A DNA stretch of 64,000 nucleotides from an uncultured Phycisphaeraceae bacterium (GCA_937988825.1 CALKHT010000056.1:1-64000), one strand, 5' to 3'; counted from the first letter of the stretch, positions 1 through 6,733 are shown. Program-made: numbers and translations. Notes: generated from the letters alone by a model not told the origin.

Positions 1-818
1 CGGTTGTTGCGGTTGATGATGCGGCGATACAGGTCGTTCAGGTCGCTGGTGGCGAAGTTGCCGCTTTCCAGCAGAACCAGCGGGCGAAGGTCAGGCGGGA
101 TCACGGGGATCACATCCATGACCATCCACTCGGGCCGGTTCTCGCTCTTGCGGATCTGCTCGACGATCTTCAGCCGCTTGGACAGATCCTTGATCTTCTG
201 CTTGGAGCGGGTGTTCTTCAGTTCAGCGCGCAGCTCGGCGTTAAGCGCATCAAGGTCCAGCCGCAGCAGCAACTCCTTGATGGCCTCGGCGCCCATGTTG
301 GCGGTGAAGGCGTGACCATACTCTTCGCGAGCCTTGCGGAACTCGTCCTCGGTGAGGACCTGCCGCTCCTTGAGCGGGGTGTCACCCGGATCGATGACGA
401 CGTAATCCTGGAAGTAGATGACCTTTTCCAGGTCGCTGGTCTTCATGCCCAGCAGGTTGCCCAGGTGGCTGGGAATGGCCTTGAAGAACCAGATGTGCAC
501 AATGGGCGCCGCCAGGTTGATGTGGCCCATGCGCTTGCGACGCACGCGGCTGTGAGTCACCTTCACGCCGCAGCGATCGCAGATGATGCCCTTGAACTTC
601 GTGCCCTTGTACTTACCGCAGGCGCACTCGTAGTCGCGTTCAGGCCCAAAGATACGTTCGCAGAACAGGCCGTCCTTCTCCGGCCGGTAGGTGCGGTAGT
701 TGATGGTTTCGGGTTTCTTCACTTCGCCGAAGCTCCACGACCGAATGTCGTTGGGGCTGGCGAGCGTGATCTTGACCGAACCGTAATCGTTTACGCGATC
801 GTAGAATGCTTCAGCCAT
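1..818 (-). CDS. rpoC: DNA-directed RNA polymerase subunit beta' (N-terminal part; the gene continues beyond the window start)
   Basis: Manual reverse-complement translation from the ATG at 818-816 gives [59 protein letters not shown]...[21 protein letters not shown]...[18 protein letters not shown], the canonical beta' N-terminus with its zinc-binding motif. The listed + strand ORFs here (4..315, 312..1010) are its antisense. Confidence 0.9.
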
Positions 819-880
819 AATTCTTGTTCGCTCCGCTTCGAGCGTGTTCGTTCTTTCCTGTCCTGCACCAGCGATCCGCC

Positions 881-1132
881 TTACGGTCTGGCGGGCACGA
901 TCATGATTTCCTCACCAAATCTCTTGCGGAGATCGCCCTCAATCGCTTCGATGACGTCGACGAACTCCAGTGCCGAAACGCCCTCGGCTGTCGGGGTGAC
1001 GATCAGATGAAGCCAGTCGCCCTCCTGCACATAGTCATCCGCGATGGCCAGGGACTGAGCAGCACGCTGCTGCGACTGCGCCAACAGTCGCCTCGCTTCG
1101 ACGATGACAATTTGTGGGGCCGCTGCAATCAT
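881..1132 (-). CDS. Small protein (83 aa), possibly a degenerate minimal-nucleotidyltransferase (MNT)-like partner of the adjacent HEPN ORF
   Basis: Start ATG overlaps the HEPN ORF stop (ATGA overlap). The C-terminal ...[17 protein letters not shown] resembles the MNT C-terminal ...LGRKVDLV... motif, but the N-terminal GS..G..D.D catalytic motif is not intact. Confidence 0.4.
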
Positions 1133-1356
1133 CTGCTCTTTCCAATATGAAGCAGGTGCGCCGTCACCATTTGCGGCAGTGTCTCGTGAGACCAGGTTCC
1201 CAGATGCGGTCGGGGGCTCAACCCCTTTTCAACCAGCATATGAGTGACCCGGGCGTAGGCTGCATAGTAGGCCCGACTCGCACAGGATCGCCATCGCTTT
1301 TCCTTCCTCAGCAATGACGCGGCTTCAAAGCCTTCCTGTGCCACCTTCCGCCACAC
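1129..1356 (-). CDS. HEPN-domain protein (75 aa)
   Basis: FEAASLLRKEKRWRSCASRAYYAAYARVTHMLVEKGLSPRPHLGTW matches the N-terminal HEPN pattern (L..A..LL..G.Y..A.F.A.QA.EKALKALL...G......H.L). GTG start is preceded by GGAGAA directly after the rpoB stop codon. Confidence 0.6.
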   Translation of the reverse strand: MWRKVAQEGFEAASLLRKEKRWRSCASRAYYAAYARVTHMLVEKGLSPRPHLGTWSHETLPQMVTAHLLHIGKSR

Positions 1357-1380
1357 AGTTTCTCCTTAAACCTGCCATCA

Positions 1381-4300
1381 TCACAGGATGCTGCCGCCGT
1401 CCAGCGAAGCTTTTTCCAGCGTGATGTTCAGGCCCAGGCCCTTGATTTCGTTGCACAGCACGTCGAACGCCACGGGCATACCCGCTTCCAAGGTGTTGGT
1501 GCCCTTGACCATCGATTCGTAAATCTTGGTGCGGCCCTCGACGTCGTCGCTCTTGACCGTCAGCAGTTCCTGCAGGATGTAGGCTGCGCCGTACGCTTCC
1601 AGCGCCCACACTTCCATTTCGCCGAAACGCTGACCACCCGTGCGCGCCTTGCCACCCAGCGGCTGCTGCGTGATGAGGCTGTACGGCCCCGTCGCACGAG
1701 CGTGGATCTTGTCGTCGACCAGGTGGTGCAGCTTCAGCAGGTACATGTAGCCCACCGCCGTCTTCTGGTCGAACGGTTCGCCCGTGCGGCCGTCGTAGAG
1801 CTGCACCTTGCCACCCTTGGGCATCTTGGTCAGCAGTTCGCGAGCGCCTGGCGCCTGCTTCTTTTCCGCCAGTTCAGCCAGCCGCTTGTCCACGTACTGG
1901 TTGGCTTCGTCGATCGCAGCGTGGATTTCTTCTTCCGTCGCACCGTCGAAGACCGGGGTGATCGCCTGGAAGCCCAGCACGCCGCACGCCCAGCCCAGGT
2001 GCAATTCGAGAATCTGGCCCACGTTCATGCGGCTGGGCACGCCCAGCGGGTTGAGCAGCACGTCGACCGGCGTGCCGTCCTCCAGGAACGGCATGTCCTC
2101 TTCCGGCACGATGCGGGCGATAACACCCTTGTTACCGTGACGGCCGGCCATCTTGTCACCGACGCTCAGCGGCCGCTTCGTCGCCAGATACACCTTCACC
2201 ATTTCCAGCACGCCCGAAGGCAGCTCGTCACCACGCTTCATGTGCGCCAGCTTACGAGCCTTTTCCTTCTGCACCGCCTGGATGCGCGGCCAGAACTGGT
2301 TGTAAATCTGCTCGGCCTTGGCTTTGACTTCCTTGTTGCCCTTGACCCAGTCCAGCGTGAAGTCGTTGATCTGCTCCAGCACCACTTCCGTGATGTCCGA
2401 AGCACCCACCTTCTGACGCGTCGACGGGTCGACCATGGCTGTACCCGTCAGCTCATTGATCTGATCCACCATCTGGCGGAACAGGTGAGCCGCACGGGCG
2501 TCCATGTCCATTTCATACTGCCGCATCTCCTTCTTGAGCTGCTTCTTCTGCTCTTCGTTGAGGTGCATGCGGCGGCTGAAACGCTTGGCGCCGATCACGA
2601 TCCCTTCCGTACCGGCCGGAACCTCCAGCGAGTCGTTCTTCACGTCCTCACCGGCGCGGCCGAAGATGGCGTGCAGCAGTTTCTCTTCCGGCGAAAGTTC
2701 GGTCTTGCTCTTGGGCGAGACCTTACCCACCAGAATGTCGCCCGGCCGCACGTACGAACCGATGCGGATGATGCCGTTCTCATCCAGACGCGAAAGCTGC
2801 TTCTCGCTGACGTTGGGGATGTCGCGGGTGAATTCCTCGCGGCCCAGCTTCGTCTCACGAATCTCGACGTCGAACTCCTCGATGTGGATCGAGGTGAACA
2901 CATCGTCCTTCACCAGACGCTCGCTGATGACGATCGCGTCCTCGAAGTTGTAGCCGTCGAACGTGTTGAACGCGACCAGCACGTTCTTGCCCAGCGCCAG
3001 TTCGCCGTTTTGCGTCGCGGCGCCGTCGGCAATGATCTGGCCAGCCTTGACCTTCTGCCCCAGCTTTACGATCGGCTTCTGGTTCAGGCAGGTCCGCTCG
3101 TTCAGACCCACGAACTTGCGCAGTTCGTATTCGTCCGCGTTGTCGATGACGATACGGCGGGCATCCACTTCGGTCACGGTGCCCGCGTTCTTGGCGCGAA
3201 CCACCATGCCCGAATACTTCGGAACTTCCTTCTCCAGACCCGTCGCAACGCACGGCGGTTCGGTCTTGATCAGCGGCACCGCCTGACGCTGCATGTTCGA
3301 ACCCATCAGCGCGCGGTTCGCGTCGTCGTGCTCCAGGAACGGAATCAGCGACGCCGACACACCCACGATCTGCTTCGGGCTGATGTCCACGTACTCGATT
3401 TCTGACGAATCGACCTGCGCCAGATCGCCGTCGACGCGCGCCAGCACCAGCCCCTTGGCGAGCTTGCCATCCGGCTCGATCAGGTCAGTCGGCCCCAAGG
3501 TCAGCTTCATTTCCTCGTCAGCACGCAGGTAAACCGCCTCGTCGCTGACCTTGCCGTTGACCACCTTGCGGTAAGGCGTCTTGAGGAAGCCGTATTCGTC
3601 GATCTGCGCGTAAATGCCCAGCGACGCGATCAGGCCGATGTTCGTGCCTTCCGGCGTTTCGATGGGGCAGATGCGGCCGTAGTGCGAGATGTGCACGTCG
3701 CGCACCTCGAAGCCGGCGCGTTTACGGTTCAGACCGCCCGGGCCCAGCGCCGACAGACGCCGCTCGTGCGTCAGCGTTGACAGCGGGTTGGTCTGGTCCA
3801 CCACCTGCGACAGCTCGCCCCGGCCGAAGAAATGCTCGATCGCGCTGCTGATCGACTTGGAGTTGATCAGATCTGCGATCTTGGCGATTTCGTCCGGATC
3901 CTTGACGCTCATGCGTTCCTGCACGGTGCGGCGGAGCTTGAGGAAGCCCTTGCGCATCTCTTCGACCGCCAGCTCGTCCAGCGTGCGCAGACGCCGGTTG
4001 CCCAGGTGGTCGATGTCGTCCACGTGAGCCTTGTTGCGGTTGGAACGCAGGTCCAGGATGTACTTGATGACGTTCAGGAAGTCATCCGCACGGAGCTGCA
4101 TCTCCGTCTCGGGGACATCCAGGTCAAACTTGCGGTTGATGCGGAATCGGCCGACCTTGCCCAGGCGGTAGCGGTTGGGGTCGAAGAACTTCTCGGCGAA
4201 GAGCTGCCGTGCCTTTTCCACCTGCGGCGGGTTGCCCGGACGCAGCCGCGCGTACAGCGCCAGCAGCGCCGCCTCGTGCTCGGTCACGGGGCTGCCCGGG

Positions 4301-5169
4301 TCCATCTGGTGTTCATCAGCGATCGTGTTGAGGATCAGCTCGTCATCCACGTGCACGATCACATCCAGCGTCTTGAGGTTGGACGCCTGCACGCGTTCAA
4401 TCGCATCACCGATGGGCCGACCAGCCGAAACGATCTCCTCGCCGGTGTCGGTGTCGACGATGGCGGCCACGGCGTAGTGCTCCGGCCGCAGATCCGTCAC
4501 CTTCACCGTCTGCACGTCGTAGAACGTGCGCAGCAGGGTTTCGGTGGTCGAGTATTTCTCATCGATCGCCCGCAGGAAGGTCGTCGCGGGGATCTTGGTC
4601 GACTGGTCGATGCGCATCTGGAGGACGTCCTTCTTGGACACCTCCAGCTCGATCCACGAGCCGCGCTCGGGAATGATGCGGGCCGAGTGCAGCGGGCGGT
4701 CCGCCTCCGCCGAGGCGATCGAGAAGTCCACGCCCGGCGAACGGTGCAACTGGTTGACAATGACGCGCTCGGCACCGTTGATGATGAACTCGCCACCACC
4801 CATCAGCACGGGGATTTCGCCGAGGTAGATTTCCTCCTCAGGAATCTCCGCCACGTCCTTGCGGACCATACGCACGCCGATGCGGAAGGGCATGCCGTAG
4901 GTCAGGCGCAGCTCGCGGCACTCATCGGGGGTGTAGCGCGGCTCATCGAGCTTGTAGTAAAGGTACTCCAGCCTCGTGTTCCCGTCGTAGCTTTCGATGG
5001 GAAACACTTCGCGCAACAGCGCTTCCAGCCCCAGTTCCGGGTCACGCTGATCGTGTGGTTTATTTAACTGAAGAAATCGGTCATAAGCTGCGGTTTGCAC
5101 CTCGACCAGATTGGGTATAGGCAGAGCATCACCACGCTTAGCGTAGTTGCGCACCGAATTCAGCTGCAT
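1381..5169 (-). CDS. rpoB: DNA-directed RNA polymerase subunit beta
   Basis: 1262-aa ORF; [35 protein letters not shown]-terminus and conserved blocks throughout (e.g. [23 protein letters not shown]). Confidence 0.97.
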
Positions 5170-5534
5170 CGATCACCTCGATCAAGCCAGGTTAAAGCCA
5201 GAAAATACAATATGTTAAGTGGACCCCGACACCGCCTTCAGTACGTCGCAAGCACATCAGTATATTCAACACCCGCCCTTTTCACAAGGCCGGTTGGGGG
5301 AAATTTCAGGAATCAGCCCGCTTCAGGGCTTGACATTTTACCAACTTTCGATCCACAAGCCCGATAATCGGCGCATTCCACGAAAGTTCACAAGCTTTCC
5401 ACAGAGGTTTCCACGAAAGAGAAAGGTACACAGGCACACCGGCACGAAGCGCTGGCAATCACCCCCTTCTCAGGCTTCGCGACCTCAGCCATTGTCAATC
5501 GCTTTTTGATTATTGCTTATTGATTGCTGATCTT

Positions 5535-5981
5535 TCACACCCGCCCGTAGATGTACTGACGCATGTAATGAATCGTTTCCTCCTGCGTCTGGGCGTCGTG
5601 GGCGTTGAGGTCGCCAATCGAGATCAGCCCCAGCACCCGCCGGGCCTCGTCGACGACGGGCAGGTGGCGGATGCGGCGGTCCTTGAACACCGTTCGTGCG
5701 TCGCCCAGGGGGGTATCGGGCCGACAGCAGGTGACTGGTTGTGTCATGACCTCGCGCACGAGCGTGCGGGCCGGATCCCGCCGGGGCACCACCACTCGTC
5801 GCAGCACATCGCGTTCGGTGAACATACCGACGATCTGTCCCGCCTCCTCCACCACCAGTGCCCCGATGCGATGGCGGTTCATCAACTGGGCCGCCTCCTG
5901 CACGGTGGCGTCCGGCTCCACGCAATAAACCGTCGCACCCTTGTACACCAGGATGTCCTGAACCGTAGACGACGTCGACAT
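5535..5981 (-). CDS. CBS-domain pair protein
   Basis: 148 aa; two CBS-like repeats (VMT.PVTCCRPDTPLGDARTVFKDRRIRHLPVVDE...VLGLISIGDL). Confidence 0.7.
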   Translation of the reverse strand: MSTSSTVQDILVYKGATVYCVEPDATVQEAAQLMNRHRIGALVVEEAGQIVGMFTERDVLRRVVVPRRDPARTLVREVMTQPVTCCRPDTPLGDARTVFKDRRIRHLPVVDEARRVLGLISIGDLNAHDAQTQEETIHYMRQYIYGRV

Positions 5982-6238: not shown

Positions 6239-6733
6239 TCAGAACAGTCTTCCCTGATCCGGCCTGTCAGGTTCGGGGGAAGTGTCGATCATCTCGCGCA
6301 CTTCGTTGAGCAGGTCATCAATATCGCGGAACTGCTTGTAGACGCTGGCGTAGCGCACATAGGCAACCTGGTCCAGCCGCTTGAGCTTTTCCGCGACGAT
6401 GCGGCCGATGTCGATCGCATTGACTTCCTTGTCGTAGGTGCGGAAGACCTGTTCCTCGACCTCCTCGACCAGCTCGTTGATCGCCTCGGCGCTGACGGGG
6501 CGCTTGTAGCACGCCTTCTGCAGGCCGGCGAGCACCTTTTCCCGGTCGAAGGGCACCCGTGAGCCATCCTTCTTGATGACGGCGATGCGGTTGGTTGATT
6601 CGATGTGCTCGTAGGTGGTGAAGCGGCGATTGCAGCTCAGGCACTCCCGTCGCCGACGAATCGCCCGGCCCCCATCGGTGGCGCGCGAGTCGATCACCTT
6701 GTCATCCTGACTCTGGCAGTATGGGCACCGCAT
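6239..6733 (-). CDS. nrdR: Transcriptional repressor NrdR
   Basis: MRCPYCQSQDDKVIDSRATDGGRAIRRRRECLSCNRRFTTYE zinc ribbon followed by an ATP-cone; 164 aa. Confidence 0.9.
   Translation of the reverse strand: MRCPYCQSQDDKVIDSRATDGGRAIRRRRECLSCNRRFTTYEHIESTNRIAVIKKDGSRVPFDREKVLAGLQKACYKRPVSAEAINELVEEVEEQVFRTYDKEVNAIDIGRIVAEKLKRLDQVAYVRYASVYKQFRDIDDLLNEVREMIDTSPEPDRPDQGRLF

Follow-up and report, generated by a model that had tools for sequence, protein, structure and literature searches.

A truncated HEPN gene and its intact partner between rpoB and rpoC: a putative toxin-inhibitor cassette of Phycisphaerae-related bacteria

Results

Two small genes lie between rpoB and rpoC

The window, a stretch of 64,000 nucleotides from an uncultured Phycisphaeraceae bacterium, carries a pair of small genes between rpoB and rpoC, two genes whose adjacency is almost universal. 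Reading of the sequence together with the ORF list confirmed the pair as real and placed all of the genes on the minus strand. The rpoB gene (1381-5169 (-), from the ORF list and its translation) encodes the RNA polymerase beta subunit of 1262 aa and ends in a TGA stop codon at 1381-1383; the C-terminal 299 aa of RpoB are 73-100% identical to rpoB of all related loci. It is followed by a spacer at 1357-1380 (-), in which a Shine-Dalgarno-like AAGGAGAA can be read 4 nt upstream of the next start codon. The first small gene, ORF75, thus begins 24 nt past the rpoB stop, and not 25 bp past it as had been noted earlier, while the ribosome-binding site described there stands. ORF75 is a truncated HEPN gene encoding 75 aa, with a GTG start (1129-1356 (-); assigned by Pfam, phmmer and alignments). 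The second, ORF83, is its intact partner gene with an ATG start (881-1132 (-); assigned by family alignment, AlphaFold2 model and fold searches), and the ORF75 stop overlaps the ORF83 start in the sequence ATGA, as the earlier note had read it for an 83-aa ORF.

Between ORF83 and rpoC, the sequence retains 62 nt of native rpoC leader with the RBS region (819-880 (-)). Related loci have similar partner-rpoC gaps of 44-69 nt (L093, L096, L098, L100 and L101). The 5' part of rpoC, encoding the RNA polymerase beta' subunit, was identified by translation at 1-818 (-); its ATG lies at 818, and the rest of the gene extends beyond the window's first nucleotide. Its translation is 71-100% identical to rpoC of related loci, and the corresponding products of L093 and L096 carry RNA_pol_Rpb1 Pfam domains. 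The complete rpoB-rpoC spacer measures 562 nt (819-1380), in agreement with the 560 bp and two small ORFs noted before; that description of the locus holds except for the strand and the one base of spacing.

A consensus scan of the minus strand of the spacer region returned no terminator-like and no promoter-like (sigma-70-like) site, and an Rfam search of the 64-kb window returned a single tRNA and nothing in the spacer region. It is from this lack of consensus promoter and terminator matches that we infer co-transcription of the small genes with rpoBC. The claim of a toxin-antitoxin-type layout embedded in the rpoBC operon is borne out by the coding strand. Both small genes have a lower GC3 (0.63 for ORF75 and 0.69 for ORF83) than rpoB and rpoC (0.84). 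On the other side, rpoB is preceded by a CBS-domain gene (5535-5981 (-)) and nrdR (6239-6733 (-)) and not by rplJ-rplL; the rpoBC operon is therefore detached from the L10/L12 genes.

A scan of bacterial genomes with the RpoB C-terminus gave, among the matches listed, 76 rpoB loci of diverse origin that allow the distance to rpoC to be measured. The rpoB-rpoC gap is 258 nt or shorter in 73 of these, so long spacers are rare; the three gaps above 400 nt are those of L014 (584 nt), L016 (500 nt) and L070 (418 nt), and all three lack the gene pair described here. The 500-nt spacer (L016, 2244-2743) belongs to a Planctomycetales MAG and contains no convincing ORF, and the 418-nt spacer was found in a Pseudomonadota MAG. 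Among the matches listed, no genome contig was closer to the window's RpoB C-terminus than 71% identity.

ORF75 corresponds to the N-terminal part of a HEPN protein

ORF75 matches the Pfam HEPN family PF05168 with 22.9 bits (gathering cut-off 22, E 9.9e-5) over profile positions 4-53 of 117. We complemented this match by an exhaustive HMMER (phmmer) search of 1.84 billion protein cluster representatives, in which a fused ORF75+ORF83 query covered both families. In this search ORF75 aligns to residues 1-69 of many proteins of 121-146 aa, the best being P0005 (125 aa, 57% identity, E 1e-16) and P0006 (126 aa, 54%). Together, the Pfam match and the strong phmmer matches to full-length HEPNs uphold the HEPN assignment made in the earlier note. 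A word-indexed homology search returned 99%-identical matches only. In some matches, the alignment to HEPN continued beyond ORF75 into the ORF83 portion; this was treated as helix-on-helix extension, because the ORF83 N-terminus is homologous to the N-termini of partners that stand beside full HEPNs. The IMG label of P0005, an intact orthologue, is 'UPF0332 family', and PF05168 is matched by all seven of the full-length relatives tested (best E 2.3e-9).

In the alignment of full-length relatives (A4), W2, R23, S27-R28, Y30-Y31 and H57 are invariant, and the C-terminal part carries the motif L85-Y86-x2-R89-x2-A-D93-Y94-x-P96. ORF75 comprises the N-terminal ~70 residues, or ~60%, of such a ~125-aa HEPN, and its match to the family HMM ends at profile position 73. 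It ends after 'HLLHIGKSR', and ~51 residues are gone, the whole LYxxRxxADY helix included. We aligned ORF75 with P0005, P0006 and six other rpoBC-embedded HEPNs (A3) and found that its final Arg codon and the ATGA overlap are retained despite the missing codons; the loss is therefore an internal in-frame deletion of ~51 codons, with an approximate junction at 1135-1146 (-) placed by the alignment and the end of the HMM match. By its profile match ORF75 belongs to PF05168, but the complete helical bundle of ~115-125 residues is lacking. It keeps the invariant His57 of the SH motif and has lost Arg89, Asp93 and Tyr94, so that one of the two catalytic residues (His57 and Arg89) is present. Compared with stand-alone HEPN proteins of the UPF0332/COG1895 type, the full-length relatives are alike in that all of them match PF05168, whereas ORF75 represents the first half of the domain with one catalytic residue missing. 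These features suggest that ORF75 is probably a dead toxin or a pseudogene.

ORF83 belongs to a family of small acidic proteins

ORF83 matches proteins of 83-156 aa with E-values of 3e-19 to 1e-23 in the same HMMER search of 1.84 billion proteins. Full-length matches among proteins of 83-94 aa include P0004 (53% identity, E 3e-19), P0009, P0013, P0025 and about 20 more. An alignment of 21 sequences (A1) shows invariant W40, P47, E65 and P80 and a common '...LLVPA.P' end, and ORF83 retains all of these family-invariant residues. No family member has a consistent Pfam match, and sequence searches of NCBIfam, PADLOC and PDB with ORF83 or the family gave no match. With P0004 labelled 'hypothetical protein' in IMG, this acidic family of ~85 aa is without a name in Pfam, NCBIfam, PADLOC or IMG.

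The AlphaFold2 model of ORF83, computed with A1, has a pLDDT of 94.7 and a pTM of 0.84 and shows the topology alpha-beta-beta-alpha-beta. Its nearest folds are the cytoplasmic domains of CDF transporters and KH domains. A Foldseek search with the model gave no match at E <=1e-3, and CDF domains again ranked at the top. The earlier note had taken ORF83 for a degenerate minimal nucleotidyltransferase (MNT). This assignment finds no support: PF01909 is found in none of the 21 aligned sequences, nucleotidyltransferases are absent from the top fold matches of the model, and the family conserves W40, P47, E65 and P80 instead. The model and Pfam likewise show no HTH, RHH or AbrB domain in the partner. 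The pI of ORF83 is 4.5, and the median pI is 9.8 for the HEPN family versus 5.1 for the partner family, a charge complementarity of the two proteins.

The gene pair is shared by diverged relatives

The closest ORF83 homologues for which the genomic context was retrieved are all arranged in the order rpoB, HEPN (~125 aa), partner (~85 aa) and rpoC (L093/L094, L095, L096 (GCA_038241095.1), L097, L098/L099, L100 and L101/L102 (GCA_029260315.1)). A metagenome scan with the HEPN alignment A4 recovered 26 loci, 24 of them with downstream sequence. The partner follows directly after the HEPN gene in all 24, and rpoB and rpoC flank the pair in 13 of the 26. We refer to this pair as the cassette. In relatives, the two genes overlap by 4-8 nt, and the cassette begins 9-60 nt after the stop codon of the upstream gene.

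In total, the layout rpoB-HEPN-partner-rpoC was observed in 19 distinct lineages, in which identity to the proteins of the window is 32-59% for the ORF83 homologues and 73-88% for the RpoB C-termini. The earlier note had asked whether the insertion is lineage-specific; comparison of the spacer with relatives shows that it is not confined to this genome, as many diverged relatives share the cassette, mostly intact. In a tree built from the last 299 aa of RpoB, the cassette-bearing lineages fall in a single clade, which also holds two Planctomycetota MAGs without the cassette, namely L014 and the Phycisphaerae MAG L012. The tree of the cassettes follows that of RpoB for the most part, which indicates that the cassette was acquired long ago, descended mostly in the vertical line and was lost in some lineages. 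The trees of HEPN and of the partner also agree roughly with each other. Taken together, the sequence comparisons indicate that the clade carrying the cassette behind rpoB is related to the Phycisphaerae, within the Planctomycetota, and that the cassette has been inherited largely vertically.

The cassette was also found outside the rpoBC operon. Four metagenome contigs (L109, L114, L117 and L119) carry it between rpsL and rpsG, upstream of fusA, and their cassettes form one clade nested among those of rpoBC. In L119, for instance, rpsL (3-380) is followed by the cassette (413-1046), rpsG (1179-1655) and fusA (1853-3259). In other loci it follows a gene for a chorismate-binding enzyme, precedes ilvC or stands behind an aaRS gene. 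In P0007 (L129, 3001-3366) and P0023 (L130, 3001-3300), an N-terminal HEPN fragment is fused in frame to the partner. One of these fusion loci is located between fliD and rph, the other in an island of small toxin-antitoxin-type genes (DUF433/DUF5615) with DUF6932 and DUF2283 genes, a neighbourhood in keeping with a toxin-antitoxin role.

Several loci show rearrangements around the cassette. In L106, rpoB, HEPN and partner are followed by a 119-nt duplicate of the rpoB 3' end with 94% identity (3228-3346, and 2265-2383), in which 40 residues of the RpoB C-terminus are encoded a second time, and then by a GNAT-like gene. From its sequence, this duplicate looks like the footprint of a secondary insertion, or of recombination, at this end of rpoB. 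Within the clade, the rpoB-rpoC spacer seems to be permissive for inserts. An ORF for a GNAT-like acetyltransferase of ~161 aa, with weak Pfam matches, occurs between rpoB and rpoC in related Planctomycetota MAGs, both in L014, which is without the cassette (5221-5706), and in L106 (3400-3882). Two tandem cassettes stand between rpoB and rpoC in L101 (3625-5022), the second partner (96 aa) being too diverged for the family HMM. The rpoB gene of this locus also contains an in-frame TAG at ~1040-1045 (RKGFL*LRRTVQ), a Lys in the window, which may be an assembly error or something else. ORFs of 63 aa and 208 aa without a Pfam match precede the cassette in L113 (1540-2348), and ~1.8 kb of very GC-rich sequence separates the partner from rpoC in L115 (3140-4930).

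The cassette resembles the effector pair of type IX retrons

The PADLOC model HEPN_IX is matched by seven of seven full-length relatives (best 5.8e-7) and by ORF75 itself at 0.0041. A PDB sequence search with the HEPN family profile gave the Retron-Kva2 HEPN (36HT) as its sole match, and in this alignment His57 of the family corresponds to H64 of Kva2 and Arg89 to R122 ('AYIVRGIVDYEP'). Retron-Kva2 is one of the type IX retron systems described, together with Sen3 and Yin1 (bioRxiv 10.64898/2026.07.14.738597, 10.64898/2026.07.14.737667, PMC13405049). The Retron-Kva2 HEPN cleaves tRNAs and rRNAs; it lacks the Rx4-6H motif, and its H64 and R122 act across the dimer interface (bioRxiv 10.64898/2026.07.14.738597, 10.64898/2026.07.14.737667). 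The substitutions H64A and R122A in the Retron-Kva2 HEPN abolish defence (bioRxiv 10.64898/2026.07.14.738597). The next, overlapping gene of the retron encodes the KH-KH-HTH ('WH') subunit, which contains two domains of ~72 aa with the topology alpha-beta-beta-alpha-beta (HB1/HB2, equal to KH1/KH2), which wrap the HEPN and occlude its active site, and an acidic patch on KH1 covers the basic surface toward the HEPN active site (bioRxiv 10.64898/2026.07.14.738597, 10.64898/2026.07.14.737667).

We compared the cassette with two type IX retron loci on plasmids of Leisingera (L131, 3423-5757) and Photobacterium (L132, 3441-5791). Both are annotated as two genes for a 'hypothetical protein' and one for a 'reverse transcriptase family protein', and they consist of a HEPN gene, a KH-HTH gene overlapping it by 8 nt and the RT gene. 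A HipA-family toxin gene adjoins the Photobacterium locus. In hhalign, the cassette HEPN family aligned to the plasmid retron-IX HEPNs with a probability of 95.3% and an E-value of 2.4e-8. The same method revealed no resemblance between the partner family and the KH-HTH proteins encoded by the two plasmid loci.

The two systems are alike in their homologous HEPN with its non-canonical active site, to which '(S/T)xH..LP' contributes the His from one helix and 'Y..R..ADY.P' the Arg from the helix that follows, and in their gene order, with HEPN first and the partner overlapping it by 4-8 nt. The partner topology alpha-beta-beta-alpha-beta is shared as well, and its structural neighbours, the cytoplasmic domain of zinc/CDF transporters and KH domains, are those of HB1/KH1, compared here by description. 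The modelled structure of ORF83 therefore suggests an equivalence of the partner to HB1/KH1 at the level of the fold. By analogy, the partner may mask the HEPN as the retron KH/HB domains do. In contrast to the retron, the cassette has neither a reverse transcriptase nor an ncRNA/msDNA (msr/msd) nor an HTH domain. No reverse transcriptase is listed among the genes of related cassette loci, and the flanks in the window are rpoB and rpoC. The cassette partner is one domain of ~85 aa, whereas the retron subunit combines tandem KH domains and an HTH in ~240 aa, and the HEPN measures ~125 aa versus ~170 aa in the retron. Finally, the cassette is located in housekeeping operons of Planctomycetota, and the retron on mobile elements or in defence islands.

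The HEPN gene is lost while the partner is kept

In five cases, the HEPN gene is damaged or missing beside an intact partner: the window, L092, L120 and the fusions P0007 and P0023. The HEPN gene of L092 has an in-frame stop ('GTW*HESLPQM') and a frameshift. L120 (2212-3126) contains rpoB, an orphan partner, HEPN, a second partner and rpoC, and it looks like a tandem pair whose first HEPN gene was lost. An intact HEPN gene without a partner was not seen among the loci examined. The exclusive loss of the HEPN gene therefore fits the prediction for a toxin/antitoxin pair. The reverse assignment, ORF83 as toxin and HEPN as antitoxin, was considered and rejected, as HEPN is repeatedly lost with ORF83 kept and the reverse was never seen. 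With two small, co-oriented, overlapping genes that are always paired, the cassette has the layout of a protein-protein (type II-like) toxin-antitoxin module, but it lacks an antitoxin with a DNA-binding domain and an autoregulated promoter of its own.

Variation within the population was followed in 11 metagenome contigs that are 99.5-99.8% identical to the window and share its layout. The intactness of ORF83 in this set is partly circular, since ten of the contigs had been retrieved through their exact identity to an ORF83 protein; L011, L092 and L120 are independent of this fetch. A single T at 1235 (-) is deleted in seven of the ten near-identical contigs covering the site. Its context is GCTGG and not a homopolymer, and the resulting frameshift cuts ORF75 to 45 aa. 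Over its 228 nt, ORF75 shows two nonsynonymous variants (E19K and V37I), one synonymous variant and this frameshift. The ORF83 variants in the population set are Q7R and one synonymous change, and the flanks of rpoB (~700 nt) and rpoC (~800 nt) have a single synonymous change each. ORF75 is still decaying, with an excess of variants over these flanks and the frameshift segregating in the population. The suggestion of a decaying module made in the earlier note is thus correct for the HEPN half, with its ~51 lost codons and segregating frameshift; ORF83 is intact.

Discussion

We infer that the cassette consists of a HEPN toxin and a protein inhibitor related to the effector pair of type IX retrons, in an unusual, conserved home within core operons. 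In the account that we consider probable, a promoterless cassette with the putative roles of toxin and inhibitor has long resided in rpoBC, and in the window its toxin is dead and the orphan inhibitor kept. The first gene would encode a HEPN RNase of UPF0332/PF05168 type, small and basic, with a split His...Arg active site as in type IX retrons; the sequence similarity suggests that the intact HEPN would be a toxic RNase. The second gene, presumably coupled in its translation to the first, encodes a small acidic protein of alpha-beta-beta-alpha-beta topology that most probably binds the HEPN dimer and masks its RNA-binding and catalytic surface. Fold, synteny, charge and the asymmetry of loss all point to inhibition by direct binding of the partner. 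Transcription of the cassette would presumably occur together with rpoBC by read-through from rpoB.

In the window, the in-frame deletion took away the helix with the catalytic Arg, and with the further damage since then, no active toxin is expected. By analogy with the retron pair, ORF83 may be a HEPN-binding inhibitor (antitoxin) that has been orphaned here and is probably still expressed as such. The orphan partner may persist because it is still useful, for example as protection against related HEPNs or in another role, or because the toxin must decay first. More speculatively, an inhibitor fed by rpoBC or rpsLG transcription could make the cassette hard to delete and could turn it into a sensor of the shut-off of host gene expression.

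Such a sensor would have a parallel in RnlA-RnlB and LsoA-LsoB, in which a HEPN RNase is likewise neutralised by a directly binding small protein. These systems sense the shut-off of host transcription, and a similar trigger, the loss of antitoxin supply, would fit a cassette fed by rpoBC. They have, however, no sequence or architectural relationship to the cassette, RnlA being a large, multidomain protein. Only tentatively do we extend the account further, to a cassette that is an ancient, mostly vertically inherited HEPN and KH-like-inhibitor passenger of the rpoB|rpoC and rpsL|rpsG operons of a Planctomycetota clade, acts, being promoterless and supplied by these operons alone, as a sensor of transcription or translation shut-off (abortive infection or addiction), and is a free-standing relative, and possibly the source, of the retron-IX pair, which would have come under msDNA control later. 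All of this holding at once strikes us as rather unlikely.

Less likely still, the cassette could be a domesticated component of its operons. The pair, or the partner alone, would then have a host function in the expression of the transcription and translation machinery and would not act as toxin and inhibitor; it might process or stabilise rpoBC or rpsL-rpsG mRNA, or the partner might be a KH-like RNA-binding regulator of rpoC translation. The long and mostly vertical retention in core operons, which is atypical of selfish toxin-antitoxin modules, would agree with such a role, as would the occupation of two gene-expression operons and the KH-like fold of the partner. It is less easily reconciled with the insertion footprint, with cassettes at other sites, with copies that stand in tandem or as orphans, and with members of the clade that lack the cassette.

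Descent from a HEPN/MNT module of type VII (HepT/MntA-like), whose antitoxin would have lost its catalytic motifs, is very improbable. There is a general likeness, as HEPN-MNT systems also join a small HEPN RNase toxin and a small neutralising partner in a two-gene operon, and the cassette HEPN falls in the nucleotidyltransferase-associated 'HEPN-T' PF05168 group (Anantharaman et al. 2013). The HEPN/MNT reading nevertheless fails every test run, with no PF01909, no nucleotidyltransferase fold and no Rx4-6H. The cassette partner is not a nucleotidyltransferase (PF01909, GSx10DxD), and the gene order is reversed. In place of Rx4-6H with an AMPylated Tyr, the cassette HEPN family has the motif R-x3-D-Y, in which D replaces H, and its conserved His lies on another helix; ORF75 is without this region. 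The replacement of H by D with a conserved H elsewhere has been noted for some PF05168 members (PMC3710099). Neutralisation in the cassette would also be steric and not by AMPylation.

That the spacer is non-coding and its ORFs a product of chance or assembly can be dismissed as next to impossible, for although both ORFs have a lower GC3 and ORF75 is disrupted in most population variants, both match independent proteins at E 1e-16 to 1e-23, ORF83 is modelled with high confidence, and the arrangement recurs in over 10 independent assemblies from this species and in 18 further lineages. A chance origin is excluded for ORF83, and ORF75 is probably no longer a functional gene.

Retention of a toxin-type cassette between rpoB and rpoC throughout a clade, and between rpsL and rpsG in other bacteria, is unexpected, and our literature search gave no relevant account of a HEPN or toxin-antitoxin module in the rpoB-rpoC spacer. 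It prompts the question by what means the most essential operons tolerate a potentially lethal RNase, or how such an RNase takes advantage of them. The cassette ties an unnamed family of small proteins to the HEPN-masking KH/HB domains of type IX retrons described in 2026. It may thereby offer a minimal two-protein model for the restraint of a non-canonical His/Arg HEPN RNase, and a plausible evolutionary origin of the retron effector module. The window itself would represent a natural 'toxin-dead, inhibitor-kept' state, which bears on whether orphan inhibitors persist through a function of their own or through the order in which the genes are lost.
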